Positions 2,383 to 15,697 of a DNA stretch of 28,336 nucleotides are shown in pieces. The position numbers and the translations under genes were made by a program. Under the pieces are notes generated by a model. That model did not search any database. It saw only the letters and a list, made by a program, of their open reading frames with translations, and was not told the DNA's origin. Every line of letters starts with the position of its first letter. Within the stretch, counting starts at the first letter, position 1. Origin of the DNA: a virus (Duplodnaviria > Caudoviricetes); the IMG/VR virus record IMGVR_UViG_3300025277_000114, positions 1 through 28,336 of that record. The stretch is one strand, 5' to 3'.

Positions 2383-2452
2383 CTGACGTGGCTGTTATAC
2401 TGCTCACTAGGACGATTGAGGAATCCCAGTGAGTAGAGTCACCACTTAGTTT

Positions 2453-2689
2453 TTATTTGTTAATTGACGATTCCAGAACTGAGATTAAGAGATTAGAAAT
2501 TTTCCCTACGTCTTCAGGTTTGTTGCAATCGTTTATTGCTGCAGAGCAATAATGACGGGCATGTACAAGTAAAGAATCTCTCAACCATTTTCCCTCATCT
2601 GTGTTTGGGATGTTAATTGTTAGATCTTCGACTAATTCCATTTCCTTCGTTGTCTTCTGCATAGTTTTCGCCACGTTCACTGTCTCCAC
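2453..2689 (-). CDS. Hypothetical protein
   Basis: ORF track; directly downstream of promoter 2726-2754. Confidence 0.6.
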   Translation of the reverse strand: METVNVAKTMQKTTKEMELVEDLTINIPNTDEGKWLRDSLLVHARHYCSAAINDCNKPEDVGKISNLLISVLESSINK

Positions 2690-2725
2690 ATCTAATGTAA
2701 GTAAGTCCTATAACGTCACACGCCC

Positions 2726-2754
2726 ATTCTACGCTATCCCATTAAAACCGACAA
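2726..2754 (-). promoter_or_regulatory. sigma70-like promoter TTGTCG-N17-TAGAAT
   Basis: Read on - strand; 42 bp from double-box element 1. Confidence 0.55.
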
Positions 2755-2795
2755 GGCTAATCAACCCATGTCAAGAACTTTTAAAAGAATTGCCC

Positions 2796-2871
2796 TAAGT
2801 CGTTGGTATAACAGGGTTTACGGCGACACGGCGGGCCGGGCCAGCCTAAGTCCTTTGGTAGTAAGGGTTTA
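2796..2871. repeat. Double-box element 1 (25-26-25 bp)
   Basis: TAAGTCGTT-GGTATAA-CAGGGTTTA / linker / TAAGTCCTT-TGGTAGT-AAGGGTTTA. Confidence 0.92.
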
Positions 2872-2928
2872 GGTCGATTTCTTTACTTCGGTTGTTTGTT
2901 GGTAAAGGTTTCGACCGATTTCTTTACT

Positions 2929-2962
2929 AAAAAAACCCCGCCCGGAATCCTCCGAACGGGGT
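2929..2962 (-). terminator. Intrinsic terminator after the DUF932-like gene
   Basis: ACCCCG...CGGGGT stem plus A-run (U-tract on - strand). Confidence 0.7.
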
Positions 2963-2980
2963 CTGGATAGGCGTCCAAGC

Positions 2981-3886
2981 CTATGCCGCGAGGGCTAGTT
3001 TTTCCGCAGCGAGTACCTGCGAATTTGCAGCACGAAGAATCCGTTCAAAATCCTCATTGCCACGCATCCTGCGACGAATGGCATCGTGCTGCTCATAACC
3101 CTGCACGGCATTATAAGCAAACCAGGCGGGAATGCCATCGACATTACTCTGGTTGAGTTTAATTTGCCCGGTCTTCCCGAGTTCATTCCACAACCTATCC
3201 ATGATTGTTGTGTTCCTGCTGCGGTGCATCGTGATCTCACGACCACCCGCATCATCAGTAGGTTCACCATAGATTTCACTCAGGAATTCTCGCATATTAA
3301 CCGTTCGCTGTTGCATCTGAGCTATCAGGTCAGTCAGAGTACACCACGAATCCTTTAACTGTGAGAAAGTCCCAATCAGTTCATCCATTGCATGTCGCAA
3401 TCCGGAAGTGTGACGAATCGAACGTGAAAACGCATCGACCGTTCGCATCATTGCCAGATTGTCGCACATATCCCGATAGTATCCGATAGAAGCCTTGAAC
3501 CCGCGACCATCAAAACCACCGCGAACCATAAAACGAGGGAACACGTTATCACCTTGCACGACGTTGAACATATTCCTACGGTCACCGTCAGTCGGTTTCA
3601 TGTGGACAAAATGCCCATTGTTGAAATGACATTTGACAGAAATCTGACCGTCGAACACTTCGGCGGCGGCTTCAGTGAGTGCGACCACATCATCGGTAGT
3701 ATGCGGCACGTAACGTGGAGAAACTGATTTCACGCCGTTCAGGTATCCATCCTTTGAATGAAACAAACCGTACTGGTCAGTCTCCACGAGTTGACCATCA
3801 ATCAGACCAACCAAAGGGTTTTTGTCAACGCTGAAATCGAATTTTGCTTTGACGGTTGCGACTGCGTTCTGTACTGAAGTTTCCAT
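2981..3886 (-). CDS. DUF932-family phage/plasmid protein
   Basis: VSPRYVP, R.MCDNL.M, IRHT and W.AYNAVQ.YEQH motifs recognised as DUF932-like; start moved to METSVQ (GGAG RBS; ORF track starts at 3925). Confidence 0.75.
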   Translation of the reverse strand: METSVQNAVATVKAKFDFSVDKNPLVGLIDGQLVETDQYGLFHSKDGYLNGVKSVSPRYVPHTTDDVVALTEAAAEVFDGQISVKCHFNNGHFVHMKPTDGDRRNMFNVVQGDNVFPRFMVRGGFDGRGFKASIGYYRDMCDNLAMMRTVDAFSRSIRHTSGLRHAMDELIGTFSQLKDSWCTLTDLIAQMQQRTVNMREFLSEIYGEPTDDAGGREITMHRSRNTTIMDRLWNELGKTGQIKLNQSNVDGIPAWFAYNAVQGYEQHDAIRRRMRGNEDFERILRAANSQVLAAEKLALAA

Positions 3887-3942
3887 AGCTCCAAAATCTC
3901 CAAAAAAGGTGAGTGTTGGCAGCACACGCTGCCGGGCTGTGC

Positions 3943-3971
3943 ATTGTAGTTTATATCGGCAGAGATTGTAA
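3943..3971 (-). promoter_or_regulatory. sigma70-like promoter TTACAA-N17-TACAAT
   Basis: 51 bp from double-box element 2. Confidence 0.55.
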
Positions 3972-4021
3972 GTAATAATTGGCTCAAAATAACAATTCGG
4001 ACGAATTTACAGAAATAGTTG

Positions 4022-4097
4022 TAAGCCGTTGGCACCAAAGGACTTAGGGTCGCGGGGCGGGCCGGGCCGTCGTAACCCGTTGCCCCCAAAGGGTTTA
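4022..4097. repeat. Double-box element 2
   Basis: TAAGCCGTT-GGCACCA-AAGGACTTA / 26 bp / TAACCCGTT-GCCCCCA-AAGGGTTTA. Confidence 0.92.
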
Positions 4098-4106
4098 CGT
4101 CAAAAA

Positions 4107-4337
4107 TCACACCTTGTGAGCAACTGGTTTACTACAATTTACATACCCCACCTCTTCTAAAAGGTCCACAAATTGCCTAAAGTGTTCCGCCAGTGTAAAA
4201 TACGCAGCCTTTTCGTCATCCCAATAGATTCGGTCATCCAGTATTCTACGTGTGTTGTAGGTTATGAGCCATCCACGAGAATTAGGTGCTTCGTCTCCGG
4301 ATTTTATTGTAAATTGTTTTTCTGTATGGTTAACCAT
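4107..4337 (-). CDS. Hypothetical protein
   Basis: ORF track 4107..4367; likely start MVNHTEK just after the upstream stop; ends 10 bp from element 2. Confidence 0.6.
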   Translation of the reverse strand: MVNHTEKQFTIKSGDEAPNSRGWLITYNTRRILDDRIYWDDEKAAYFTLAEHFRQFVDLLEEVGYVNCSKPVAHKV

Positions 4338-4339
4338 TG

Positions 4340-4570
4340 TTAGTTCTTTCTTAAGTGTTGCCACCATGTTGGATTTACTCTGCGGTTTCTACCCGCACAA
4401 CTTAAACATTGCTTAGACTGTCCGGTTCTAAGATGTTTACTGCAAACGTCTTTAATTTTTCCACACGCACATTGACATTGCCACAAAGTCTGTACACTGG
4501 GTTCGTCGGCCCTTTTAATAACCGTCCATCTGCCAAACTTTCTACCGTGCAAATCGATTAGTTCATTCAC
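4340..4570 (-). CDS. Stand-alone Cys-rich domain like the N-terminal repeat of AP2/HNH-type phage endonucleases
   Basis: DLHGRKFGRWTVI...WQCQCACG......HLRTG.SKQC..C motif. Confidence 0.7.
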   Translation of the reverse strand: MNELIDLHGRKFGRWTVIKRADEPSVQTLWQCQCACGKIKDVCSKHLRTGQSKQCLSCAGRNRRVNPTWWQHLRKN

Positions 4571-4572
4571 CT

Positions 4573-4728
4573 TTAATATCCTAAGAAATCTAAAACATCT
4601 TTGCCCAAGTATTCTTCGCGGTCACCGTATTCTAATACGAATTCTTCAAATGTCGCGTCATGTTGTTCAAGTTCCCATTGTGCTTCACGACGGGATACAA
4701 TGGCTTCGCACGCTTCGTAGTAATCCAT
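4573..4728 (-). CDS. 51-aa acidic protein (MDYYEACEAIVSRREAQWELEQHDATFEEFVLEYGDREEYLGKDVLDFLGY)
   Basis: Translated by hand; fills the gap exactly. Confidence 0.65.
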   Translation of the reverse strand: MDYYEACEAIVSRREAQWELEQHDATFEEFVLEYGDREEYLGKDVLDFLGY

Positions 4729-4771
4729 GATAATAAAAGCGGGGATTTTCATCCCCGCCTCCGTTCCTAAT

Positions 4772-4831
4772 CTAAGGGTCGAAATAGTATGTTAACACAA
4801 CATACATAATCAAACACAAAATAGCGGCCAT
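4772..4831 (-). CDS. 19-aa hydrophobic peptide (MAAILCLIMYVVLTYYFDP)
   Basis: AAGGAG RBS; followed by hairpin GCGGGGAT/ATCCCCGC plus U-tract at ~4735-4758. Confidence 0.4.
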   Translation of the reverse strand: MAAILCLIMYVVLTYYFDP

Positions 4832-4842
4832 CCTTCTCCTTT

Positions 4843-5598
4843 CTATCTAGAGTAGGAAAACTTCTCTCCTTTCCTTTTAAGGGTAGAGATTGCTGCGGCG
4901 GCTTCACTGCCTGCCGGTTGAATACCGTGAATCATTAGAGCAAAGTCCTCGTTTTTGGTCAATGGGTTTGCTGCATGGGAATCGTCGTGGTCAACTTCCA
5001 AACCTAGTTTTTCTGCCTGTTCGTATGAATAGACTACAATCGCAGATCGTAGGTTGAGTTGGTCGATCAGGTTATCACATCGCCCACCATAGGATGCCGT
5101 CAAAATCAGATTGTCTGGGATGTTTCCCAGATTCTCCAGCCAGTAGGGTAGGCTCTTTGTGTAGGCGTAAAACAGGCGGTCAGGGTTTAGAATAGCAACC
5201 TGAATCCACGCCCGGAAATATTTCTTATTAAAGAAATCACCAGCTACATGAATGCGACCGATTCCGAGATTGTGCGGCATTATGTCGGAAATTATCGCGA
5301 CCATTTCATCAGTGGTTTTATGTCTCAATGCTTCAAAATTGTTTAGGCGTTTGTTGTACGTATTTGTCAACAGTGCTTCCTGAGACGCTGAGAAACACCG
5401 GATCTCCATTTTTGGACCGTCCACAACTTTACGCCGCCCGTTAATAATCTTAACTTTTGACAGACACGTTTCAGCGAAGGGACAAGAATGACCAGAAATC
5501 AAGTCGAAAGAGTAAATTTTGCGACGATTTTGTAAAAATATTTGTAAATCAGGATGCTTCGCGAGTTCTTGCAGTTTTACGTTGGCCTTCGAGAACAT
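4843..5598 (-). CDS. GP88-like (mycobacteriophage gene 88-type) Cys-motif protein
   Basis: SCP.A..C...C.. cluster, RIHVAGDFF, FYAYTKS and NLILTAS motifs. Confidence 0.7.
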   Translation of the reverse strand: MFSKANVKLQELAKHPDLQIFLQNRRKIYSFDLISGHSCPFAETCLSKVKIINGRRKVVDGPKMEIRCFSASQEALLTNTYNKRLNNFEALRHKTTDEMVAIISDIMPHNLGIGRIHVAGDFFNKKYFRAWIQVAILNPDRLFYAYTKSLPYWLENLGNIPDNLILTASYGGRCDNLIDQLNLRSAIVVYSYEQAEKLGLEVDHDDSHAANPLTKNEDFALMIHGIQPAGSEAAAAISTLKRKGEKFSYSR

Positions 5599-5646
5599 AC
5601 TTTTACCTAATCTTGAAATTTACGGGATTTTCACTTGCAACCTCCC

Positions 5647-5675
5647 ATTATAGCATAATGCGTTAAAACACTCAA
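5647..5675 (-). promoter_or_regulatory. Strong sigma70-like promoter TTGAGT-N17-TATAAT (TG-extended)
   Basis: 32 bp from double-box element 3. Confidence 0.75.
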
Positions 5676-5706
5676 GACCAGTCTGTCCAGATTGTATGTT
5701 TCGACC

Positions 5707-5782
5707 TAAGTCGTTACCAGCAAAGGGCTTAGGTCGGCCCGCCGGGCCTTGCCGTCGTAAGTCGTTACGGGCAAAGGGTTTA
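5707..5782. repeat. Double-box element 3
   Basis: TAAGTCGTT-ACCAGCA-AAGGGCTTA / 26 bp / TAAGTCGTT-ACGGGCA-AAGGGTTTA; terminal TTA is the stop of ORF 5780..6055. Confidence 0.93.
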
Positions 5783-6055
5783 CGGCGGATCATCCACGAA
5801 CCAGTCTATCTGCTGATAGTCGCCGTCGTCGCAATCGCGTTGAGCAGCAATCACATCTTCCAAGATGTAGTCACCTTGATCGTCATCGTCGAGGTTCTGC
5901 CATTCCACGCCGGTAATCATATCAGGACGTTCGTCTTTGTTGGGATCAATTCCCATCTGATGCAGGATTGTTGGCTCTCCAATTTTGACGAATTTAGCAT
6001 TCGCAGGCGATAGTCGAACCCAGCCGGAAAACTCTACAATAATGTCTTTCATCAC
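5780..6055 (-). CDS. Acidic hypothetical protein
   Basis: ORF track; AGGA RBS; Asp-rich. Confidence 0.7.
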   Translation of the reverse strand: MMKDIIVEFSGWVRLSPANAKFVKIGEPTILHQMGIDPNKDERPDMITGVEWQNLDDDDQGDYILEDVIAAQRDCDDGDYQQIDWFVDDPP

Positions 6056-6061
6056 GTCGTC

Positions 6062-6196
6062 CTAAAAACAATGTTCAAAGTGGACTTCCGCCCTGCCTTG
6101 CGTATCTTCATGATGGAAATGATGATCTACTGCAAATGAGCTTATAACTTTACAGCCCGGCAATAATAGTAAACCAGCAATTATTAAAATTCTCAT
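6062..6196 (-). CDS. 44-aa putative lipoprotein, His-rich (MRILIIAGLLLLPGC-KVISSFAVDHHFHHEDTQGRAEVHFEHCF)
   Basis: Translated by hand; GGAG RBS; lipobox-like LLPGC after a hydrophobic stretch. Confidence 0.6.
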   Translation of the reverse strand: MRILIIAGLLLLPGCKVISSFAVDHHFHHEDTQGRAEVHFEHCF

Positions 6197-6197
6197 C

Positions 6198-6611
6198 TCA
6201 ATTCTCCACAGGATAAGGATGAGTAAGAAGTTCGTACACACCCGCCGTATTCAATATCACAGCGTTCATAGTATGACACGGTCCTCCGAGATGTCTAAAC
6301 GTAGACATTTTGTAAGGATCATAGGTTACCTTGTCACCTTTCACAAGATCACCTTTTCTTATAAAGATGCCCTTGATAAAGGCGTGAACGTTTTTGCGTT
6401 TTTCTCTCAGGACTCGTTGCCGTCCCGCTTCGCTCACTTTGAATTGGCACTGTTCTAAAGCTATTGCGTGAGTGTGCAACCTAACAATGCCGTCTTGACG
6501 TACCGACCAACAATTCCGATTGAGATTTTTGTAAACCTCAATCGGTTTCATTGGATCGATTAGCCAAGCTATTCTTCTATCGGTTGAACAATTACGAATG
6601 AACGTTTTCAT
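6198..6611 (-). CDS. Conserved phage hypothetical protein
   Basis: VYKNLN..CWSVR...F.VSEAGRQRVLREKRKNVHAF motif recognised from phage proteins of unknown function. Confidence 0.75.
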   Translation of the reverse strand: MKTFIRNCSTDRRIAWLIDPMKPIEVYKNLNRNCWSVRQDGIVRLHTHAIALEQCQFKVSEAGRQRVLREKRKNVHAFIKGIFIRKGDLVKGDKVTYDPYKMSTFRHLGGPCHTMNAVILNTAGVYELLTHPYPVEN

Positions 6612-6856
6612 TAGAATCTCACAAGTTTTTTCTCACTGTAGGATCGAAAATGTCCGTTAGGTTTCTTTACGGTAACGAACCACCCATTCGGACCTCTTCC
6701 AACCTTTTCAACATTACCTTCTAGGTCACACAGTATATTCCTTTTCCCGTGTAGTGGATACTTCAACTTCAGACCAGAAACATCGTCACCCACTTCAAGG
6801 TGCAACATAATCTCAGCCATCGTCGTTCTTTTTGTCACTTGTACGATCATCTTCAA
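6611..6856 (-). CDS. Hypothetical protein, possible SH3/WYL-like beta-barrel
   Basis: ORF track; beta-rich pattern ending FRSYSEKK; start uncertain. Confidence 0.6.
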   Translation of the reverse strand: MKMIVQVTKRTTMAEIMLHLEVGDDVSGLKLKYPLHGKRNILCDLEGNVEKVGRGPNGWFVTVKKPNGHFRSYSEKKLVRF

Positions 6857-7013
6857 AAACCCTTTCTATAGCTTGCCTAGAAACAAAAAACTCATTACCC
6901 TTGTTTTCAATATCGACACCATCGTGACGAATCTTGACAACTTTCCCAATACTTAGTTTAGAACCAACAGAAATATCCGCGTTCTGCTGATTCACCGCTA
7001 CTCTACTTTTCAT
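6813..7013 (-). CDS. Hypothetical protein
   Basis: GGAGGTG RBS; first gene after promoter 7025-7053. Confidence 0.7.
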   Translation of the reverse strand: MKSRVAVNQQNADISVGSKLSIGKVVKIRHDGVDIENKGNEFFVSRQAIERVFEDDRTSDKKNDDG

Positions 7014-7024
7014 CTTTCACCTCC

Positions 7025-7053
7025 ATTGTACCATAAACTACTCCCAACGTCAA
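7025..7053 (-). promoter_or_regulatory. sigma70-like promoter TTGACG-N17-TACAAT (TG-extended)
   Basis: Near-consensus hexamers. Confidence 0.75.
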
Positions 7054-7056
7054 GAC

Positions 7057-7126
7057 CCGCTGACCGCTGACCGCTGACTGCTGGCTATAAACATTATCGG
7101 ACAAGGTCCGATTGGACACTTGTCCA
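7057..7126. repeat. Hairpin element B1: (CCGCTGA)n plus ATCGGAC-AAG-GTCCGAT hairpin
   Basis: Related copies at 11430, 13548 and 14562. Confidence 0.8.
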
Positions 7127-7156
7127 TTAGCCCACTATTATACACATAAATTGACG

Positions 7157-7232
7157 TAAGTCCATACATACCAACGGGTTACGTCAAAAAAACCGGCCCC
7201 CTCGCCCTAACCCCTTGCGGGGCTAGGACTTA
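7157..7232. repeat. Double-box element 4
   Basis: TAAGTCCAT-ACATACC-AACGGGTTA / 26 bp / TAACCCCTT-GCGGGGC-TAGGACTTA; first box flanked by TTGACG...CGTCAA. Confidence 0.88.
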
Positions 7233-7241
7233 GGACGATTA

Positions 7242-7319
7242 TTAACCTGTTGATATGCATGTGAAAATTATAGCGGTTATTAAACCGATCCAAACCGCTA
7301 TAGTTTCTACTGTGTTCAT
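7242..7319 (-). CDS. 25-aa TM peptide (MNTVETIAVWIGLITAIIFTCISTG)
   Basis: Translated by hand; last gene of its module, ends 10 bp from element 4. Confidence 0.45.
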   Translation of the reverse strand: MNTVETIAVWIGLITAIIFTCISTG

Positions 7320-7326
7320 TTGTCTT

Positions 7327-7518
7327 TTACCCATCATCTTCTCCAAACATATCATCCCAACATTTAACACAAGTGCGGGATATTAACATTTCTCGGTCAT
7401 CCTTGTTCAAACTTGGCATTGCGTCCTGAATGAGTTTACCGCCCTTCCAAGCCTGAAATTCTTCATCTTTTACTGGAACGTCTACAACTGTCTCACAACT
7501 ATGACATGTAATTTCCAT
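7327..7518 (-). CDS. Small CxxC...CxxC zinc-binding protein
   Basis: CHSC...LIQDAMP.L...DREMLISRTCVKCW. Confidence 0.75.
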   Translation of the reverse strand: MEITCHSCETVVDVPVKDEEFQAWKGGKLIQDAMPSLNKDDREMLISRTCVKCWDDMFGEDDG

Positions 7519-7529
7519 TATCTCATTCC

Positions 7530-7769
7530 CTATTTGAAACTAAAATAGTATCGTGGATCGTGTTGAAAAACCAATGTGCCCTCTTTGCCATCCGACTTAC
7601 GTCGGACACTCACGAACGGAGCTATGAAACCCAGTGTCTCAAAATCCTCTCGCATCTCTTCCATATTCCACACTTGGCCGTACTTTTCGACTAATGCTGG
7701 GCGACTACCTGGAACGTGATTAATTTCCTGCACCATTTCGCGGCGGATTGTTTCAGTGGGATCACTCAT
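7530..7769 (-). CDS. Conserved hypothetical protein
   Basis: YGQVW....EDFE.LGF.APFV.VRRKSDG.EG.L.FQH.PR.YF pattern; stop/start overlap with neighbour. Confidence 0.75.
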   Translation of the reverse strand: MSDPTETIRREMVQEINHVPGSRPALVEKYGQVWNMEEMREDFETLGFIAPFVSVRRKSDGKEGTLVFQHDPRYYFSFK

Positions 7770-8050
7770 TGTGCGGTTTCCTTTTCTCGTTCGTGAATTA
7801 AATTAGCAACTTCCAACAGTCCGTTGATCATTTTCTCGACTGCCTCAACGTTCTCGAATGATAGCATAAAAGACTCAACAACGTCAACCTGTTTACCTTT
7901 AATTGATCCATGCGTTTGCGGGATCTCAAACTTGATGTCAGCCCAGTGCTCACTTTCAATTAGCCATTTAATATCCTTTATGTAAGAGATGTCGTGATCA
8001 ATAAACACCTTGCCGGTTTCTGAAATGTACGTTCTGCCCGTTACCATCAT
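7766..8050 (-). CDS. Hypothetical protein
   Basis: ORF track; tightly packed operon. Confidence 0.7.
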   Translation of the reverse strand: MMVTGRTYISETGKVFIDHDISYIKDIKWLIESEHWADIKFEIPQTHGSIKGKQVDVVESFMLSFENVEAVEKMINGLLEVANLIHEREKETAQ

Positions 8051-8052
8051 TT

Positions 8053-8277
8053 TTAATCCTCCGAGTCAGGGTAAAGTTCGCGATATTCGTCAACACATCT
8101 TTGCATGTTGGCGATTGTTTCGGCATCGACTTCGACATACGCTACACGTGGGATTTCTCTGCTGTCGTAACTTTTACCGTACACTGTAAGCTGGAAACGT
8201 CTTTTGTTGTCCCGATGATAACCAGTCATTGAAATAGTTCCGCTGGAATTTTTAGCAGTCATCAGTTCAGTGCTCAT
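8053..8277 (-). CDS. Hypothetical protein
   Basis: ORF track; tightly packed operon. Confidence 0.7.
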   Translation of the reverse strand: MSTELMTAKNSSGTISMTGYHRDNKRRFQLTVYGKSYDSREIPRVAYVEVDAETIANMQRCVDEYRELYPDSED

Positions 8278-8584
8278 TGTTTAATGCCTTGCAAATTGTT
8301 TCCAGATAAGTCCTGCCGTGCTCATCTTGTGATTGTACGTATGCACATTCTGGATACACTACGAATTCCGTAGGCTCAGTACAGATAATTTTTTCAGTTT
8401 GCGTGTCTTTAACTGCTAAGTATTCGCAAACGTCGTCCCACTTATTGCCGGACAAGTGACGCAGAGTTACAATTTGATAGCGGTGAAATGCTTTTTCAGC
8501 CGCTTCAGCAATAGCCGCCGCACCATTTACAGGCATGTTTAATTCTTCCTCTGAGATATTATGTTTACGTGTTTCCCAATCCAT
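8267..8584 (-). CDS. Hypothetical protein
   Basis: ORF track; tightly packed operon. Confidence 0.7.
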   Translation of the reverse strand: MDWETRKHNISEEELNMPVNGAAAIAEAAEKAFHRYQIVTLRHLSGNKWDDVCEYLAVKDTQTEKIICTEPTEFVVYPECAYVQSQDEHGRTYLETICKALNNEH

Positions 8585-8586
8585 AA

Positions 8587-8802
8587 TTATCGTCCCAATG
8601 GTCTCAATGCAGTTGCGAGACGATCTTGTTTAATGTCGATGTTTTTAATTCTCATGCCCTTCAATGCCCTAGCGGCCAGATTCCTTCCGTCCTGTTCTAC
8701 GTATGTACTGACAATATCAGACCATACTTTGACGCTTGCGGAACGATCTCCAAAGATGTGTATGAATACATCCAAACCATCATTGTAGTACATCTTGTGC
8801 AT
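8587..8802 (-). CDS. Hypothetical protein (start MHKMYY)
   Basis: ORF track 8587..9021 runs through element 5; GGGAGCAACAAA-ATG at 8802 lies downstream of promoter 8841-8869. Confidence 0.65.
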   Translation of the reverse strand: MHKMYYNDGLDVFIHIFGDRSASVKVWSDIVSTYVEQDGRNLAARALKGMRIKNIDIKQDRLATALRPLGR

Positions 8803-8840
8803 TTTGTTGCTCCCATGTTGTTTACACTTGCCACGCGGGT

Positions 8841-8869
8841 AGTCTATCATTATCATCGACAGATGACAA
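8841..8869 (-). promoter_or_regulatory. sigma70-like promoter TTGTCA-N17-TAGACT
   Basis: 52 bp from element 5. Confidence 0.6.
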
Positions 8870-8920
8870 GCTCTAGACCATCTATTTCGCCATAAATTCA
8901 AAAGGTTATCAAAATAGCCG

Positions 8921-8996
8921 TAAGTTGTTATTGCCAAAGGGTTTACGCTCACGCGGCCCGCCCCGTCGCCGCAACTCATTGCGACAACAGGGTTTA
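8921..8996. repeat. Double-box element 5
   Basis: TAAGTTGTT-ATTGCCA-AAGGGTTTA / 26 bp / CAACTCATT-GCGACAA-CAGGGTTTA. Confidence 0.9.
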
Positions 8997-9017
8997 CGTC
9001 ATTTCCTTCACCCCAGC

Positions 9018-9335
9018 TCAATCGGCTGGGATTGGATAAGACTCCCGAACAGGTCCACCAATTGGTACGGGCGGCATTTGTCCACCCCAGTCAAGATATT
9101 CAAAACTGGGAAAGTGTGCTTTCTCTGCGGTTATCCATTCGCCATAAACTAGAAAGACACTTGTCATTCCATCCTCTGTAACCGCGTCGATCTCCATTGG
9201 ATCTTCGCTATTGCCGGACAAGTGACGCAACACCATGTTTGCACCTGCTATAAAATGAGCAATGTCCGTTTTTCTTGAGTGTGCAAATTTCCTCAGAAAC
9301 ACGCGAGTAGCTGCACTGGTTTTGATTTTGCTCAT
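9018..9335 (-). CDS. Hypothetical protein
   Basis: ORF track; GAGGA RBS; ATGA overlap. Confidence 0.7.
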   Translation of the reverse strand: MSKIKTSAATRVFLRKFAHSRKTDIAHFIAGANMVLRHLSGNSEDPMEIDAVTEDGMTSVFLVYGEWITAEKAHFPSFEYLDWGGQMPPVPIGGPVRESYPIPAD

Positions 9336-9784
9336 GATTCCTCTCTTACTAATGTTTGTGAGTACTTATCAACAAATGACCGTGATTCGATTTGTTTGAC
9401 CAGTCTACGGAGGTATTCTGGCTGTTGGTACTGCGTATCCATGCCTATATCGATACCTAAGTTACTCAGCAGCAACTGAAATCGTTGTTCTTGGTCTGCA
9501 ATAGCAGCCGCAAGGACCGTAGGTCTATCTTCACTTCTTGCTTTGCCACTGGGGTAGACTCGTTGTTCTTTTTTGGGTTTTAAGAGATTGAGTTCAATCT
9601 CAGCGTCTTTAGCTAATCTTAGTAATTGAGTCGAGTCCGATAGCCTTATATCTAATTCACAACGCAAAAGGTCCACAACCTCTTGTGCAGTCATGCCCGT
9701 CACATCCATCTTTCGGAGATGTTCAACAACTCTAAACTCTTGCCAACGTTTCAGACAGTTCGCCATTGTACTACAGCCTTTCAA
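9332..9784 (-). CDS. Hypothetical protein, possible N-terminal helix-turn-helix
   Basis: GMTAQEVVDLL...LS.S.QLLRLAK pattern; start may be MANCL. Confidence 0.65.
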   Translation of the reverse strand: MKGCSTMANCLKRWQEFRVVEHLRKMDVTGMTAQEVVDLLRCELDIRLSDSTQLLRLAKDAEIELNLLKPKKEQRVYPSGKARSEDRPTVLAAAIADQEQRFQLLLSNLGIDIGMDTQYQQPEYLRRLVKQIESRSFVDKYSQTLVREES

Positions 9785-9947
9785 TAATTGAGTTTTGAAA
9801 TTCCCGGTCAGATACTTCGTCGAGTTCTTTTTGTGCTTCGCGTTCCTGCTCTTCCATCCATTTTTGCATAAAAGCCATTTCCTCCATGTTGAAACACAGT
9901 TGAGCCATTGAAACCTCTTCGCACTGGACTTCGTCGTAACTATTCAT
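9771..9947 (-). CDS. Small acidic protein (MNSYDEVQCEE...)
   Basis: AGGGAAGCAACG-ATG leader downstream of promoter 9988-10015. Confidence 0.65.
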   Translation of the reverse strand: MNSYDEVQCEEVSMAQLCFNMEEMAFMQKWMEEQEREAQKELDEVSDREFQNSIIERL

Positions 9948-9987
9948 CGTTGCTTCCCTTGAAAAACACAAAAAACCAGATACAAGT

Positions 9988-10015
9988 ATTGTCGTCAAAT
10001 CGCCAAGAATTGCAA
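9988..10015 (-). promoter_or_regulatory. Promoter TTGCAA-N16-GACAAT
   Basis: Same layout as 13355-13382 and 15954-15981; 42 bp from element 6. Confidence 0.55.
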
Positions 10016-10056
10016 TACCTTTTCTTGTAGTTTATGGCAAATAAAGAAAGTTGACG

Positions 10057-10132
10057 TAAGTTGTTGTTGTCAAAGGGTTTGCGTCGGCGGGGCCGGTCTT
10101 AGTGCCCTAAACTGTTGGCACCATAGGACTTA
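10057..10132. repeat. Double-box element 6
   Basis: TAAGTTGTT-GTTGTCA-AAGGGTTTG / 26 bp / TAAACTGTT-GGCACCA-TAGGACTTA; terminal TTA is the stop of the upstream ORF. Confidence 0.9.
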
Positions 10133-10315
10133 CGTAATATCTTTTCCTGTTAATTTCATCACTTTGAATTCTAGTGGGATGAATTGCCAATCGTATTCTT
10201 CTCCGATCCACTGTGTACAGTCCTCTGGATCAGTACCAACTTCTTCCGGTATTTCTCCCTTAATAATGCTTTCCGTGGTTGGACGGAATGCCTTGTATAG
10301 TATTGTAGTTTGCAT
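10130..10315 (-). CDS. Hypothetical protein (start MQTTIL)
   Basis: 3' part of ORF-track 10130..10477; the upstream extension overlaps hairpins and a terminator. Confidence 0.6.
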   Translation of the reverse strand: MQTTILYKAFRPTTESIIKGEIPEEVGTDPEDCTQWIGEEYDWQFIPLEFKVMKLTGKDIT

Positions 10316-10327
10316 TATTATTCCAAT

Positions 10328-10663
10328 AAAAAAACCGGTCCCTTGGGTCATTTGCGGAAGCAACTCAACAAATAACACCAAAGGACTGGCGAGCGATATT
10401 AAGAGCTGGTAAGAAATAGTGATCAAGCTATTTCTCTCACTCACTGTTATTCCGGTGCCCCGGACAGTGAAATCCACGCCAGCAACAAATTACGATCACT
10501 TCGGCGGCTGCTTTAGTTTCACGCAATTGACATGGATAGAACTGATTATGTCTGAAATGTACCAAGTATCAGAGAATGTCGCAAAAATCGGGCTAGCACG
10601 ATTATGGAGTGATTTGAGGGAACTGCAATTCAGACCATCAGTCCTTGTGTCGTTGTTTCCTGT
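10328..10663 (-). ncRNA. Candidate structured ncRNA or long regulatory leader
   Basis: Lies between promoter 10670-10698 and a hairpin plus U7; no credible ORF; several hairpins and 5'/3' complementarity. Confidence 0.45.
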
Positions 10664-10669
10664 ACGTGC

Positions 10670-10698
10670 ATTGTACTCTTTAGATCGGACGATTGCAA
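10670..10698 (-). promoter_or_regulatory. sigma70-like promoter TTGCAA-N17-TACAAT
   Basis: 52 bp from element 7. Confidence 0.65.
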
Positions 10699-10749
10699 CG
10701 CCAAGTCCTCCGATTTCGATAATAATCAGAAAGTTTCTTGAAATTGCCC

Positions 10750-10825
10750 TAAGTCCTTAGTATCAAAGGGGTTAAGTCTTCGCGACCCGCCCCGTTACCG
10801 TAAGTCGTTACGGCAACAGGGGTTG
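10750..10825. repeat. Double-box element 7
   Basis: TAAGTCCTT-AGTATCA-AAGGGGTTA / 26 bp / TAAGTCGTT-ACGGCAA-CAGGGGTTG. Confidence 0.9.
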
Positions 10826-10950
10826 CGAGATCCTACCCGGCTTTTATACCCTTCAACATCTGTATTTTGGTGGGTGTGACTCCCACCCGGTCTTTTTTGC
10901 ATTCGAATAGACCAACAGACACTGAGACAGCAAGGGGGCCGGGTCTTATG

Positions 10951-11223
10951 TCAATTTATAGGCTGATTTTCACCGTAAGATGCTGGGATATTCTGTTCAC
11001 ACACATCGCAAGTGAGATTTTGATCCTCCCAGTTAATAAACGCTTCGACGCGGTTTACATCTTCAAATTCTTTTTTGTTTGTACAGTCTGGACAACAGTG
11101 CATATGTTCATTATCCGCGTGAACATAATAGAACATCTGATATCCGCCGGGCCAAGCAAAATGATCTAATTGCTTGCCGTTGTTGTAATCCTGTGTAACA
11201 GCTTCAGAACGTCGAAATGTCAT
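10951..11223 (-). CDS. CxxC-containing phage hypothetical protein
   Basis: AWPGGY.MFY...CPDC...NWED..L.CDVC...I.ASYG. Confidence 0.75.
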   Translation of the reverse strand: MTFRRSEAVTQDYNNGKQLDHFAWPGGYQMFYYVHADNEHMHCCPDCTNKKEFEDVNRVEAFINWEDQNLTCDVCEQNIPASYGENQPIN

Positions 11224-11227
11224 TTAA

Positions 11228-11407
11228 TTAATCCTCGTGATAGCCAATAATGTCTTTGATCGCACTCATAAATATACGCAATGAACCCATGATTGTCAAC
11301 ATCCAAGCCGCACAAAGTACATAAGCCAGAGTAGTCCCTGAACTGTGGAATACACAGCCATACAAAATTGCTAGCATAATTACAAGCTGTATTATCGCTT
11401 CAACCAT
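11228..11407 (-). CDS. Small two-TM membrane protein (start MVEAII)
   Basis: AAGGA RBS; ORF-track extension to 11500 only translates repeat B2. Confidence 0.6.
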   Translation of the reverse strand: MVEAIIQLVIMLAILYGCVFHSSGTTLAYVLCAAWMLTIMGSLRIFMSAIKDIIGYHED

Positions 11408-11429
11408 TATTTTTCCTTTATAAAATTCT

Positions 11430-11500
11430 CGCTGACCGCTGGCCCGCTGACCGCTGACCCGCTGACTGCAGACATTATCGGACAGGGTCCGATTGGACAC
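11430..11500. repeat. Hairpin element B2
   Basis: Five (C)CGCTGR units plus ATCGGAC-AGG-GTCCGAT-TGGACAC, nearly identical to B1. Confidence 0.85.
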
Positions 11501-11526
11501 AAAGATAGCCGCCCCGGAGGGCGGCT
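11501..11526 (-). terminator. Terminator-like hairpin
   Basis: AGCCGCCC-CGGA-GGGCGGCT followed on - strand by ATCTTT. Confidence 0.55.
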
Positions 11527-11538
11527 GGTGGTGGGATG

Positions 11539-11691
11539 TTAGGCGGCAACGGTCTGAAGTTCTGCGTTCACGTCTTCAAGTTGTTCCTCATACCACTGGT
11601 CAAGTTGCTCGTCAGATACCCGCAGGTATTCCAGCAGATCATCACACTCGTAACGGTAGTATTCGAGAGAATAATTGGCTGTCTCGTACAT
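11539..11691 (-). CDS. 50-aa highly acidic protein (MYETANYSLEYYRYECDDLLEYLRVSDEQLDQWYEEQLEDVNAELQTVAA)
   Basis: Translated by hand; GAGGAAGCAACA-ATG leader; has its own promoter and terminator. Confidence 0.75.
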   Translation of the reverse strand: MYETANYSLEYYRYECDDLLEYLRVSDEQLDQWYEEQLEDVNAELQTVAA

Positions 11692-11730
11692 TGTTGCTTC
11701 CTCAAAAAAGTGAATTGTAACCCGATACGT

Positions 11731-11759
11731 ATATTATCGGCATTCTATTCCGTGGTCAA
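11731..11759 (-). promoter_or_regulatory. Promoter TTGACC-N17-TAATAT
   Basis: 42 bp from element 8. Confidence 0.6.
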
Positions 11760-11800
11760 TAGTTATTCCCCAAGTTTTCTGCTAATTTAAGTTATTGCCG

Positions 11801-11876
11801 TAAGTCGTTAGCCTGTAAGCAGTTACGTCGGCCCGGCCCGCCCCGTCGTCCTAAGTGCTTAAGTGATAAGGGTTTA
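11801..11876. repeat. Double-box element 8
   Basis: TAAGTCGTT-AGCCTGT-AAGCAGTTA / 26 bp / TAAGTGCTT-AAGTGAT-AAGGGTTTA. Confidence 0.9.
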
Positions 11877-11975
11877 GGTAAAAATCTCCGCCAGTATCGC
11901 GACGGCTTCCGCCATCGCCCAAGAAAACGCAAGAGCAAACAGAAAGATTCCCACAATTGAGAAAACCGCAATCAT
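11874..11975 (-). CDS. 33-aa hydrophobic peptide (MIAVFSIVGIFLFALAFSWAMAEAVAILAEIFT)
   Basis: ATGA overlap with the upstream gene; stop is the terminal TAA of element 8. Confidence 0.55.
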   Translation of the reverse strand: MIAVFSIVGIFLFALAFSWAMAEAVAILAEIFT

Positions 11976-12172
11976 TGGTTGATATCCCATAAAACTTTCG
12001 CGGCGGATTCCACGCGATTCGCTGCGGCAACAGCATATTCAGTGGTTCCAATGTCATCATAATGAATGAAAACATCGTGCCAAATCGTGTGGGTGAAATC
12101 ATCCCGATTTTCGTAAGTCGAGAGATCAAACTCCCATCCGTTCAAGTTTACAATACTGTCGGCGGTTTTCAT
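11972..12172 (-). CDS. Hypothetical protein
   Basis: ORF track; ATGA overlaps. Confidence 0.7.
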   Translation of the reverse strand: MKTADSIVNLNGWEFDLSTYENRDDFTHTIWHDVFIHYDDIGTTEYAVAAANRVESAAKVLWDINQ

Positions 12173-12480
12173 GCTGTTTCCTTATAAGATTTATTGATTT
12201 TGAAAAACATAATGTTTTCAAAATTATCGTACAATTTCAGCTCTGCCTCATCGTATGTCAATTTTGTGTCGGATGTGATCGTATGTTGAAACCAGTCACT
12301 GATTCCAATCGCACCGGATCGGCGACCGTGAAAACTGGTTTCGTACACCCAAAATTCTGCATTTTGTGAATTGAATTGTGCCGTTTCAATGTCCATCGTT
12401 TTTGTCCTTATCATATTGTTGTCAAGCCTGAAGTACATTTTTGGCACTGAAGAACCACCAACCCGGTGCGTCTTCCTCAT
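12169..12480 (-). CDS. Hypothetical protein (true start probably internal)
   Basis: ORF track; 5' part overlaps the upstream gene. Confidence 0.6.
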   Translation of the reverse strand: MRKTHRVGGSSVPKMYFRLDNNMIRTKTMDIETAQFNSQNAEFWVYETSFHGRRSGAIGISDWFQHTITSDTKLTYDEAELKLYDNFENIMFFKINKSYKETA

Positions 12481-12664
12481 TCCTGTTCAGGATCAAAGTC
12501 TTCCCTGCAAACTTGGAAAGTAGTGCAGTGTGTTCGGCATCGTATCCCACCGTTTTGCTGTTGAGCAATGTATCGGCAGCGACGATCAACTGCCCACCTT
12601 TGAAGTATGGTGCGTCGAATTTTTCTGATTGGTACTTGTCGAGGTAAACGGTTTTGACTGTCAT
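12422..12664 (-). CDS. Hypothetical protein, paralog of the N-terminal half of 14745..15185
   Basis: Shared TVY.D..Q...F.APYF.GG.L.VAAD.LLNSK..GYDA.HT.LL...PG.W. Confidence 0.8.
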   Translation of the reverse strand: MTVKTVYLDKYQSEKFDAPYFKGGQLIVAADTLLNSKTVGYDAEHTALLSKFAGKTLILNRNEEDAPGWWFFSAKNVLQA

Positions 12665-12691
12665 GGTTGTTCCTTTTGAGTGTGAGCGTGC

Positions 12692-12719
12692 ATTCTAATC
12701 AATGGTCGATTGTTGTCAA
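12692..12719 (-). promoter_or_regulatory. Promoter TTGACA-N16-TAGAAT (near-duplicate of 13124-13151)
   Basis: GCTTGACAACAATCGRCCATTRATTAGAAT in both copies. Confidence 0.75.
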
Positions 12720-12886
12720 GCCTGTTTTCCGGTCAATTTCTCAACATGAGAGAACTGCCGGATCTCGAATTTCGTGTCAGGATTGTGCAACTGCATTTCT
12801 GTCATTGCCTTGAATGCCTCATTCTGTTCCATGTAGATCGTCGTTCGGTAGTCTTGTTTTTTTCCGATTTGAAAAACCGCGTACAT
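12716..12886 (-). CDS. 56-aa hypothetical protein (MYAVFQIGKKQDYRTTIY...)
   Basis: Translated by hand; its TGA stop lies inside the TTGACA of the next promoter. Confidence 0.6.
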   Translation of the reverse strand: MYAVFQIGKKQDYRTTIYMEQNEAFKAMTEMQLHNPDTKFEIRQFSHVEKLTGKQA

Positions 12887-12897
12887 TTTTGTTACCC

Positions 12898-13089
12898 TTA
12901 AGCTATTTTTGTGACTGTCTTGAAATCAACACACTGGAAATTTTTGTTCAGTGTAAACCAGACATTTCCCGTCCCGGAAAGTGCTTCGATGATTACTTGT
13001 GTGCCGTCTTCAAGTGCGATAGCTTCGCCACGCTTGAGAGTGATATTGGTTTCTGTTTCGTTGTTGAAAAAAGTCAGTGGGATGCCCAT
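12898..13089 (-). CDS. Hypothetical protein (start MGIPLTF)
   Basis: GAAGGAAAACAAA-ATG leader downstream of promoter 13124-13151. Confidence 0.65.
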   Translation of the reverse strand: MGIPLTFFNNETETNITLKRGEAIALEDGTQVIIEALSGTGNVWFTLNKNFQCVDFKTVTKIA

Positions 13090-13123
13090 TTTGTTTTCCT
13101 TCGTGTTGTGTTTGTGAGTGTGT

Positions 13124-13151
13124 ATTCTAATTAATGGCCGATTGTTGTCAA
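13124..13151 (-). promoter_or_regulatory. Promoter TTGACA-N16-TAGAAT
   Basis: Near-duplicate of 12692-12719. Confidence 0.75.
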
Positions 13152-13318
13152 GCCCGGCACGCTCTTTTGATGTAGGAAAGGGATTTTGAGGTTTTAACCA
13201 GAACACGACCGTTTGCGTTTTTCTTTGCCATGTAATATGCGGCAGTTGAACCGGCACATCGCAGGGTGATCGACCATCGGTTAATAATGTCGATGAATTG
13301 TTCAGGGGTGTTTGTCAT
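13148..13318 (-). CDS. Small basic hypothetical protein (start MTNTPEQ)
   Basis: Same leader CAACACGAAGGAAAACAAA-ATG as the previous gene; TGA stop inside the next TTGACA. Confidence 0.65.
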   Translation of the reverse strand: MTNTPEQFIDIINRWSITLRCAGSTAAYYMAKKNANGRVLVKTSKSLSYIKRACRA

Positions 13319-13354
13319 TTTGTTTTCCTTCGTGTTGTTGTTTGTCATACGTGT

Positions 13355-13382
13355 ATTATCGTCATTTTGGGACGGATTGCAA
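13355..13382 (-). promoter_or_regulatory. Promoter TTGCAA-N16-GATAAT
   Basis: Same class as 9988 and 15954. Confidence 0.6.
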
Positions 13383-13459
13383 TACAACAATCCGTGATTA
13401 TTTTAAGATCCCATAAACAAGAATGTCGCCCTTATTATTAAGAAATTTGGTTTTTGACC

Positions 13460-13535
13460 TAAGTCGTTGCCGTACAAGGGTTTACGTTCGCGGGGCCGGT
13501 TTTCACGTTGTAAGTCGTTTGACAGTAAGGGTTTA
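13460..13535. repeat. Double-box element 9
   Basis: TAAGTCGTT-GCCGTAC-AAGGGTTTA / 26 bp / TAAGTCGTT-TGACAGT-AAGGGTTTA. Confidence 0.93.
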
Positions 13536-13547
13536 CGTCAATTTCTC

Positions 13548-13616
13548 ACTGACTGCTGGCTGACTGGCTATACACATTACCCGACAGGGTCGGGTAAGAC
13601 ACTCCGTGTCTTACCC
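13548..13616. repeat. Hairpin element B3
   Basis: TTACCCGAC-AGG-GTCGGGTAA overlapping GGGTAAGACAC-TCC-GTGTCTTACCC. Confidence 0.85.
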
Positions 13617-13630
13617 TTCCCTTGTCAAGG

Positions 13631-13708
13631 CTACTTTCGGCAAAGCGGGTAGATTCCCAACAATGGGAATCCAATCCCGCTAATGGCAATTATCAGATCA
13701 ATCAGCAT
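13631..13708 (-). CDS. 25-aa hydrophobic peptide (MLIDLIIAISGIGFPLLGIYPLCRK)
   Basis: CAGGAAGCAACAAT-ATG leader shared with neighbours. Confidence 0.55.
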   Translation of the reverse strand: MLIDLIIAISGIGFPLLGIYPLCRK

Positions 13709-13732
13709 ATTGTTGCTTCCTGTGTCTTGAAC

Positions 13733-13924
13733 CTAGTTCCAAACCTGTTCCATGATCCATTCGATGGGGTCGCCTGTTCTGGCCTTCATGGTGCCATATG
13801 GCATGTCGCCATTGCCAGCGAAATGATCGTACAATGCCTGATACAACTTGTCATGATTTGACAGGCAGTCCCCCGCATGGACTGCGTTGAACGCTGCCTG
13901 ATTGTCTCGGATAATCTTGTCCAT
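13733..13924 (-). CDS. Hypothetical protein
   Basis: LY..LYDHF...GDMPYGTMKARTGDP.EWI motif; shared leader. Confidence 0.75.
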   Translation of the reverse strand: MDKIIRDNQAAFNAVHAGDCLSNHDKLYQALYDHFAGNGDMPYGTMKARTGDPIEWIMEQVWN

Positions 13925-13990
13925 TGTTGTTGCTTCCTGTTGAGTTGAGTGATGAGGCCGGGAACGTTCCCGGCCTCGTAGTGTGACGAT

Positions 13991-14314
13991 TTACAGAGAA
14001 TTGATGATTTTGTTCAGAGCTTTGCCAACACTCCACAGATGATCGATGTTCGTCCCTGGCAATGTGATCGTCTCATCCGCGATTCCTTCGTCCGTGATGT
14101 TGTTGATTGTGCAAGGCCACCGTTCGCCTTCGTCGCATTCCGCCCAGATCAGCGGAGTGTCGCTTGTGTCGATATCGACACAACTGTCCAGGGGATTGAT
14201 TGAAACGATAACCGCTTCGCGACAGGCCCAGTCTTCCAGGATGATCCTGTCACCAACTTTGACAGTCCAGCCTATTTCGTCGCACGTTACGCTTTGTAGT
14301 GAGTTTCTTCCCAT
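13991..14314 (-). CDS. Hypothetical protein, paralog of 15698..15913
   Basis: Shared SVTCDE.G.TVK.GD.IIL.D...IDTS.TPL..AE...GE.WPCTINNI. Confidence 0.8.
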   Translation of the reverse strand: MGRNSLQSVTCDEIGWTVKVGDRIILEDWACREAVIVSINPLDSCVDIDTSDTPLIWAECDEGERWPCTINNITDEGIADETITLPGTNIDHLWSVGKALNKIINSL

Positions 14315-14474
14315 CGTGTTGCTTCCTTCATGTTAGTGGTTGTTTCGTCTCTCTATATACTATAGCGTCAAAACTCAGAAAATGTTACATAGTTTTTACC
14401 CCAATATCGTGGTTTGTCAATAATGGGAATTCCATTCTATTAGTGAGAATATCCCTATTTCTCCAATATTGACG

Positions 14475-14550
14475 TAAGTCGTTGCCCTGTAAGGGTTTAT
14501 GTCCACGGGGCCGGGCTTCGCGTCGTAAGTCCTTTGCTGGTAAGGGTTTA
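14475..14550. repeat. Double-box element 10
   Basis: TAAGTCGTT-GCCCTGT-AAGGGTTTA / 26 bp / TAAGTCCTT-TGCTGGT-AAGGGTTTA. Confidence 0.93.
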
Positions 14551-14561
14551 CGTTGATTTCT

Positions 14562-14625
14562 CGCTGACACGCTGGCTATACACATCACCCGACAGGGTCG
14601 GGTGAGACACACCGTGTCTCACCCG
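14562..14625. repeat. Hairpin element B4
   Basis: TCACCCGAC-AGG-GTCGGGTGA overlapping CGGGTGAGACAC-ACC-GTGTCTCACCCG. Confidence 0.85.
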
Positions 14626-14626
14626 C

Positions 14627-14714
14627 ATTGAGACTGAGTCTCAATCTCAATCCAATTGAGACTGAGTCTCAATCTCAATCCCCCAGAAAAGCCGAATTGA
14701 GACTGAGTCTCAAT
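14627..14714. promoter_or_regulatory. Three copies of the 19-bp 9-1-9 palindrome ATTGAGACTGAGTCTCAAT (Fur-box-like operator candidate)
   Basis: Exact copies at 14627-14645, 14655-14673 and 14696-14714. Confidence 0.6.
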
Positions 14715-14744
14715 CGGCAGATTCCCAGGAATAGGAAGCCGTTC

Positions 14745-15185
14745 CTATTTCTGACAAAGTGGGGCGAATTCCATTTTGTCAACTGTGAACGTCTTCGGGT
14801 ATTCTTCCCCGATGCACTCAACCCGGCAGACTATGCTTCCTGTCTTGCTTTCCCAAGGTTCCTGAACCACCTTGCCCTGCCTATCCTTCCCATTGTACGA
14901 GAACGCCACAGAGTCTCCCGCCTTCATTCCCCGATGAACCGCAATTGCCACCGGGTCTGTCATGGTTTGACTGATTGTCCAGGATCCTGGTTGATCCCAT
15001 TCGGCACGAGTCAGAACAAGCGTAGCCTGTCCGTATCCGGTCAGCAGTTCAGTATGGGGAGCGTCGTATCCGCAGCCACCTTTGCTGTTCAGCAGTGCGT
15101 CAGCAGCCACTACCAATCGACCACCTGCAAAGTATGGTGCTGCGAATCGTGCTGCCTGGTTCTGGTCGATGTAAACTGTGTTCAT
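14745..15185 (-). CDS. Two-domain protein: paralog of 12422..12664 plus C-terminal WYL/SH3-like domain
   Basis: N-terminal similarity seen directly; C-terminal V.FSYNGK.R.G....KTFTVDKM resembles WYL-like folds (inference). Confidence 0.75.
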   Translation of the reverse strand: MNTVYIDQNQAARFAAPYFAGGRLVVAADALLNSKGGCGYDAPHTELLTGYGQATLVLTRAEWDQPGSWTISQTMTDPVAIAVHRGMKAGDSVAFSYNGKDRQGKVVQEPWESKTGSIVCRVECIGEEYPKTFTVDKMEFAPLCQK

Positions 15186-15686: not shown

Positions 15687-15697
15687 TGATTCGTTCC

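Follow-up and report, generated by a model that had tools for sequence, protein, structure and literature searches.

What might ten copies of one paired palindromic element, all of the same length, be doing among the small genes of a phage? The question is raised by the Caudoviricetes record IMGVR_UViG_3300025277_000114, a virus record of 28,336 bases (the window, by which this whole stretch is meant) whose best-matching sequencing runs are marine metagenomes. Small genes lie on the minus strand up to ~16.1 kb and are followed by plus-strand genes, which encode a sigma-like factor, a ClpP-like protease, terminase and head proteins. Judging by gene size, host-type promoters and position, the small-gene region is probably expressed early and is labelled so here. 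Distributed through it are the elements E1 (2796..2871), E2 (4022..4097), E3 (5707..5782), E4 (7157..7232), E5 (8921..8996), E6 (10057..10132), E7 (10750..10825), E8 (11801..11876), E9 (13460..13535) and its sister E10 (14475..14550). The preferred answer, with a probability of about 0.62, is that a host protein resembling integration host factor (IHF) would bind the paired boxes of each element, with promoter control as its main role.

Each element comprises a 25-bp box, a 26-bp linker and a second 25-bp box, the box starts lying exactly 51 bp apart in all ten. Under a profile built from these same 20 boxes, they score 24.2-37.7 bits and the next-best site in the 28,336 bases scores 6.6; over the whole window the profile finds no site in the late half. 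A repeat search that is independent of the profile groups nine of the ten elements as one family. Ten exact 51-bp spacings and such a score gap are far beyond chance. The box reads YAA-N4-TT-N7-AA-N4-TTR, with the YAA, TT, AA and TTR columns invariant or nearly so, and the conserved site reaches ~37 bp when its C/G flanks are included. An earlier, sequence-only reading of this DNA had reported the positions, the 25-26-25 layout of constant length, the lack of elements in the late half and co-oriented modules of 0.7-1.8 kb, all of which are borne out, the modules measuring 0.69-1.76 kb start to start with their genes on the minus strand. Its description of uniform quasi-palindromes needs amending: the geometry is uniform and the orientation is not, E4 being inverted relative to the other nine; the box is symmetric but systematically imperfect, with GACTTA usual in one arm and GGTTTA in the other; and the GC-rich linker, of the length described, centres on a GG(C/G)(C/G)GCC-like run and is not random GC filler.

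The architecture of the box recalls that of an IHF site. As excerpts of the literature describe, IHF introduces two kinks into DNA, 9 bp from each other (10.1101/382655), and its consensus WATCAR-N4-TTR occupies one half of the site (10.1101/382655; PMC10380432). In the box, the invariant TT and AA lie 9 bp apart, YAA/TTR stand at both ends, and the TTR element, 4 bp beyond the AA step, is present on both sides. By its letters, then, the box is an IHF half-site mirrored, a predicted two-fold-symmetric IHF-type site. The exact core is matched by 14 of the 20 window boxes and by 692 of 802 boxes of the wider family, the counts being partly circular since family boxes were selected with a profile of the core motif. 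Conservation was assessed on 29 elements from nine relatives; with 6 discordant and 2 duplicate ones set aside, 21 orthologous pairs were left. Across these, differences are seen in 16 of 420 cells (3.8%) at the ten core positions, compared with 36/336 for the N4 columns, 53/294 (18%) for N7, 67/462 for the linker and 27/168 for the C/G flanks. Because the core positions are the least variable, selection agrees with the IHF-type interpretation. Of the 196 boxes with a spacing of 41, 42, 48, 50 or 58 bp, 99 have the full WATCAA-N4-TTR sequence. It is very probable that an IHF-type protein binds at the boxes.

The element is not confined to this phage. A family search pattern allowing 40-70-bp spacing matched at least 180 stretches (~280 estimated); with relatives and 20 fetched regions added, the set came to 484 pairs, of which 401 remained on dereplication. 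Spacings among the 401 are 53 bp (174), 52 (61), 51 (48), 50 (35) and 58 (19), more rarely 42 (19), 41 (17), 48 (8) and 49 (7), with 13 others; one genome mostly keeps to one value, and the value differs between genomes. The core pattern occurs in 12 of the 12 records searched and its reversed control in none, and among the matches listed it clusters in one region per record. The terminase of the window is common to 28 of 34 records, 19 at 49-75% and 9 at 27-31% identity, and sharing down to this lower range suggests that the element is old in a broad phage clade. Elements of the distant terminase group mostly have the full IHF consensus plus other spacings. Scans of viral contigs for close relatives returned one and the same contig each time, and among 25 of 85 terminase matches listed, no cultured phage exceeded 30% identity.

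What connects the boxes to transcription is their position relative to predicted promoters. A promoter-like site lies to the left of every window element; seven of the ten score above 9 and three are weak, the earlier reading having given each module its own promoter. All are on the minus strand: sigma70-type promoters are predicted at 2726..2754 (-35 start 41 bp from E1), 5647..5675 (31 bp from E3), 7025..7053 (103 bp from E4), 8841..8869 (51 bp from E5), 10670..10698 (51 bp from E7) and 13355..13382 (E9), weakly scoring ones at 3943..3971 (50 bp from E2), 9988..10015 (41 bp from E6) and 11731..11759 (41 bp from E8), and the E10 promoter region (14359..14420) contains two weak candidates with a -35 at 14420 or 14388. 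Across the family, orienting the elements by open reading frame (ORF) content was unsuccessful and promoter score was used instead; 213 of 289 oriented elements have a downstream sigma70-type promoter scoring above 9. When the flanks are collapsed to 113 independent ones, 103 of them within 110 bp, the -35 starts peak at ~20, 31, 41, 51 and 70 bp from the element, a period of ~10-10.2. This phasing (R=0.46, n=103) is not equalled in any of 2000 jitter shuffles, rises with promoter score (R=0.59, n=43), persists when each source contributes a single value (R=0.51, n=37) and is also present when only the window elements are taken (R=0.65, n=10, p=0.015). The opposite-side control gives no phasing (R=0.11, n=81). 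The same period recurs in the A-tracts that lie between element and promoter, and phasing extends to unpaired boxes (R=0.47, n=39). The centre of the proximal box falls at about -66, -77, -87, -97 or -117 relative to the estimated start. One of the two proposals of the sequence-only reading, tandem sites through which a single dimeric protein controls the early region, gains support from the IHF-type box and the promoter phasing.

Such an arrangement has partial precedents among the IHF-assisted sigma70 promoters. Lambda pL is reportedly one of them, counted as such by the title of Giladi 1998 alone. An IHF site with A-tracts activates the sigma70 promoter glpFK in a phase-dependent manner, in the IB element of IS5 (PMC2753651), and gltBDF is another promoter of this class (PMC1784095). 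As in these systems, an IHF-type site and phased A-tracts lie upstream with helix-face dependence, the promoters here being predicted ones; a site upstream of the -35 in helical phase is found for them, significantly so in the 51-54-bp class only. The known promoters have a single asymmetric site for the alpha/beta heterodimer, whereas the phage has symmetric sites in rigid pairs round a GC-rich linker, before approximately ten promoters per genome.

The proposed mechanism would begin with two dimers of a host IHF-like DNA-bending protein on each element. The bound pair would fold the DNA directly upstream of the next module's predicted promoter, and this folding would likely boost or gate early transcription, activation being the presumed direction. 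At a separation of 51-53 bp (five turns) or 41-42 bp (four turns), two in-phase U-turns would approximate one loop. A toy two-bend model, illustrative only as its geometry depends on the assumed twist, gives a closed loop at 41-42 and 51-53 bp and an open zigzag at 48, 54 and 58 bp. A comparable fold is described for the type I-F CRISPR leader, where two IHF sites bend ~150 bp into a U-turn and loop (10.1101/2023.05.26.542337, in part). The two systems have two IHF-type sites in common, and the single box also occurs in CRISPR leaders; the phage element differs in having no Cas1-2 partner, repeat array or integration site. A more ambitious version, in which a broad clade of large aquatic phages would have two symmetric IHF-type homodimers of the host form a repeated, nucleosome-sized loop that acts at the same time as a protein-made terminator or topological insulator upstream and as a phased enhancer downstream, with the sequence of the sites as well as their spacing retuned to the IHF variant of each host phylum, is tentative, with the odds clearly against it; if true, this would be the first sequence-specific site of an IHF-like homodimer of Planctomycetota and a host-prediction signature.

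Where would the protein come from? PF00216 (HU/IHF) was found in none of 26 related records, among them 11 at ≥90% completeness; of the two sources first suggested for the factor, elsewhere in the phage genome or the host, the host is now the probable one. In cells, the single box is found at 132 loci against an estimated handful by chance. By hand count, 53 of these are in Planctomycetota-titled records, five of the 53 being phage-like pairs, and several of the other cellular loci are paired arrays that resemble mis-binned phage contigs. In 151 Planctomycetota genomes, the only phylum in which this comparison was run, the core pattern has 244 matches and its reversed control 51. Most cellular boxes flank ordinary genes, and some lie where IHF-type sites are known to occur, namely at tRNA ends, beside integrases or transposases and in CRISPR leaders; tRNA ends adjoin the box (within 15 bp) at 3 of 32 cellular loci, and integrases or transposases make up 5 of 74 scanned ORFs flanking cellular boxes (90 picked). 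Three CRISPR leaders (L204, L248, L277) have the box, ~10 bp from the last repeat in the first two. The leader beside cas3 (L204:1465-1620, L248) has two boxes 92 bp apart, and its record is titled Woesearchaeota yet has ~60% GC, possibly as a result of mis-binning.

Each of the five box-carrying Planctomycetota genomes examined has a single protein with IHF-beta as its top NCBIfam match and with an R-x-E-x-R motif; their other DNABII proteins are divergent and lack that motif, and no alpha-type partner was recognised in these five. The R-x-E-x-R stretch of the IHF beta chain is the one that reads TTR. TTR on both sides of the box is, we propose, what a beta-type homodimer would need, and the binder is likely an IHF-beta-like homodimer of a Planctomycetota host. 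In the 51-54-bp class (for instance 10670-10698), 64 of 90 promoters have a CGATA motif in their spacer, as against 0 of 20 in the other classes; the motif is a possible mark of a host sigma factor or an additional regulator. As a promoter motif it gave 13 matches against 3 controls in 121 Planctomycetota genomes and 12 against 8 in 121 Verrucomicrobiota genomes. A search with the sigma-like protein and the Atlas indicated no host.

Several observations weigh against this picture of a host IHF-like protein acting on promoters. The WATCAR part of the E. coli consensus, and with it the full consensus, is found in none of the 20 window boxes, and the full consensus in only 42 of 572 boxes of the 51-54-bp class. 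The Planctomycetota proteins score 65-86 bits, under the NCBIfam IHF-beta cut-off of 115, and of 29 additional loci, sampled at one per genome and not as a census, eight had the R-x-E-x-R motif. A Lachnospiraceae genome with several boxes gave just an HU-like protein, and a Bacteroidetes metagenome-assembled genome gave none, G183 and G187 being counter-examples. In the former, many near-identical single boxes were observed (L179, L220, L224, L226, L233). For one window protein, homologs were found in just 2 of 121 Planctomycetota genomes, and these are weak. Beyond the 51-54-bp class, phasing lacks significance (R=0.28, n=20), and in the window the predicted promoter of E9, at 77 bp, is out of phase. 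Phasing is also a matter of geometry, which does not distinguish activation from repression. No whole number of helical turns fits spacings of 48-50 and 58 bp, so a single loop geometry does not cover the family, and one relative is without E7 altogether.

The IHF-type sites might have another main job, the insulation of modules as a roadblock terminator or supercoiling barrier, which is doubtful as the principal role. Genes end at or just before the element although an intrinsic-terminator-like hairpin lies upstream of just 21 of 246 elements (antisense control 3; within the element 3/246) by a test that was strict; a strong one stands upstream of E1 (2933..2964, minus strand), and most elements have none. 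The gene stop falls at the box's own TAA in 21 of 229 cases, and the frame of that TAA is open in 46 of 235, as against 22 and 20 for the other frames. In the window, the outer TTA of the right box of E3 supplies the TAA stop of the upstream gene, and the right-box TTA of E6 is the stop of ORF 10130-10477. In the 58-bp lineage (L046, L054, L001, L003; 4 elements) the linker is itself terminator-like, with a GC stem, tetraloop and T run. Few classical terminators, genes ending at the box and this hairpin linker make a second, boundary role plausible, and the loop that closes in the toy model would suit a barrier. A pure barrier, however, would not require promoter phase. Alternatively, the boxes might resemble IHF sites only in part and be operators, for repression or activation, of a dimer that the phage encodes or that is a host protein other than IHF. 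The conserved C/G flanks are foreign to the E. coli consensus, the window boxes lack WATC, boxes occur in the genome where only an HU-like protein turned up, and most early proteins have no assigned family, any of which would suit such a dimer. Yet the same box lies in cell chromosomes at CRISPR leaders, at tRNA ends and beside integrases, the columns in which it varies least coincide exactly with the kink and TTR positions of IHF, and related lineages grade into the full IHF consensus, all of which makes the operator explanation unlikely. Still less probable is a decoy sponge that soaks up a host IHF-like protein and so deprives CRISPR leaders, att sites or the origin of it. Twenty strong sites within 12 kb and the host-type box in CRISPR leaders, which IHF folds for spacer integration (10.1101/2023.05.26.542337, in part), are what a sponge might look like; fixed pair spacing and promoter phase would be unneeded, and E. 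coli has 5,000-10,000 IHF molecules per cell, far above 20 sites, according to an excerpt of PMC10380432.

The other proposal of the sequence-only reading was a dedicated site-specific cassette system, with a tyrosine-recombinase core or attC-like folded sites, that shuffles modules. In dif/XerCD, lambda att and integron attC, inverted arms surround a 7-bp spacer, and gene stops can overlap attC. The 11-7-11 layout of the box and the overlapping stop codons are alike in this respect; a recombinase, matching spacers, pairing covariation and module reordering are the features by which the phage elements differ. No tyrosine recombinase (PF00589) was found in any of the 26 related records or among the window proteins, the latter as the sequence-only reading had noted; serine recombinases were not searched for, and a host enzyme is possible. 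The N7 spacer varies as freely as had been described, with 18 distinct sequences among the 20 window boxes, and drifts like the flanking DNA; between the two boxes of one element, no N7 identity beyond that of shuffles was found. In 128 elements from 19 sources, all nine inverted comparisons show less pairing at variable positions than genome-matched shuffles do (z -1.3 to -4.5; -2.9 to -4.5 within boxes and -4.0 at the linker ends), a deficit that partly reflects the strong-arm/weak-arm asymmetry of the box. This negative covariation leaves no support for an attC-like hairpin. An RNA hairpin or cruciform was rejected on the terminator-hairpin counts and the negative covariation, as was an idea of wobble pairs from plus-strand G.T-type mismatches, the transcribed strand having more A.C (357) than G.T (226).

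The relatives tell a similar story. Nine of them, at ~77-90% identity, keep the element order, contrary to what shuffling predicts; in L310 one gene block (12907-13074) is placed elsewhere and is not element-bounded. The prediction that breakpoints map to elements fares better in part: 9 of 43 alignment breakpoints lie in or within 12 bp of an element against 3.6 expected, six of them at the right edge, an enrichment inflated by likeness between elements, but 34 of 43 lie outside. Module E5-E6 (8946..10081, minus strand) is gone in relatives with an in-register E5/E6 hybrid element, namely L323 and the X19 contig (joint 8945-10082), where the 1,136-bp module is missing. Similarly, L310 and L320 have one element copy in place of the window's E9 and E10, an E9/E10 hybrid in L320. 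The gene for a 91-aa protein (5780..6055, minus strand) is found in some relatives and missing from others, the change falling exactly on the right edge of E3, where the box supplies its stop codon, and E7, missing from the relative L309/L310, was lost in L310 at a five-base micro-homology. Exact runs common to adjacent elements are 6-14 bp only. The in-register hybrids, which a cassette system could also claim, fit ordinary homology-driven exchange, and dedicated shuffling is given very little credence.

A closer parallel to this turnover is offered by the PeSL (promoter-early stem-loop) cassettes of the T4-type phages RB49 and phi1 (Arbiol et al. 2010, PMC2839356). In the portion of that paper drawn on here, each cassette opens with a stop codon, continues with AT-rich DNA, leads up to a sigma70-like promoter and is repeated in the variable early region, and chimeric copies mark the gain or loss of a gene between two cassettes. 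The phage elements are likewise repeated intergenic cassettes with a sigma70-like promoter in a variable early region, with chimeras at the E5/E6 and E9/E10 events. PeSL, as described there, needs an RNA stem-loop terminator of varying position, whereas the phage repeat is a rigid protein-type site pair outside the promoter, with pairing disfavoured and the promoter in helical phase; few elements have a stem-loop terminator, the 58-bp lineage being the exception. For the PeSL mini-circles, the comparison covers assembled contigs, in which rare molecules are dropped: among such contigs of eight DNA runs no circle junction of this phage was found, and the joints that appear to go back are elements of other phages with different linkers. 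On the preferred reading of host IHF-like proteins at paired boxes, PeSL-like homology joints for module gain and loss would likely be a by-product of the repeats.

If right, early gene expression in a widespread phage clade would be run by a modular switch that works by DNA bending and is taken over from the host, and cassette turnover would be explained without a new recombinase. The box would also offer a candidate recognition site for the IHF-beta-like protein of Planctomycetota, as yet uncharacterised, and might help to identify the hosts of uncultured phages. The parts are known, namely IHF-assisted promoters, PeSL cassettes and two-IHF CRISPR leaders, and the combination appears to be new: in mainly non-subscription literature, supplements excluded, no published description of paired symmetric IHF sites phased to approximately ten promoters was found.

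Other features of the window deserve mention. Module E1-E2 contains a DUF932 gene (2981..3925) and module E2-E3 a GP88-family gene (4843..5598), both on the minus strand, and there are paralogous early gene pairs (12422-12664 with 14745-15185; 13991-14314 with 15698-16060). An Rfam search of 1-17000 returned just one tRNA-Ile plus one chance match. Another 25-bp box occurs in three copies (2067-2091, 2138-2162, 2273-2297), which flank a strong plus-strand promoter (2107-2135) and the tRNA-Ile(TAT) gene (2185-2258). A second repeat of ~40 bp with an internal inverted repeat is found at 7080-7119, 11461-11500, 13563-13602 and 14571-14610, preceded by short tandem CGCTGAC-like units; two of its copies come immediately after E9 and E10. 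A 19-bp AP-1-like palindrome (GAGACTGAGTCTC core) is present in several copies, at 14620-14717 and ~16015-16034, close to where the leftward block begins. Between the sigma-like factor and the packaging genes, 18628-20447 encodes a sulfotransferase and a GDP-mannose 4,6-dehydratase. Finally, counts of 4-mers in the 28 kb are 0 for GCGC, 39 for CGCG and 117 for GATC, and the absence of GCGC suggests avoidance of a host restriction site.

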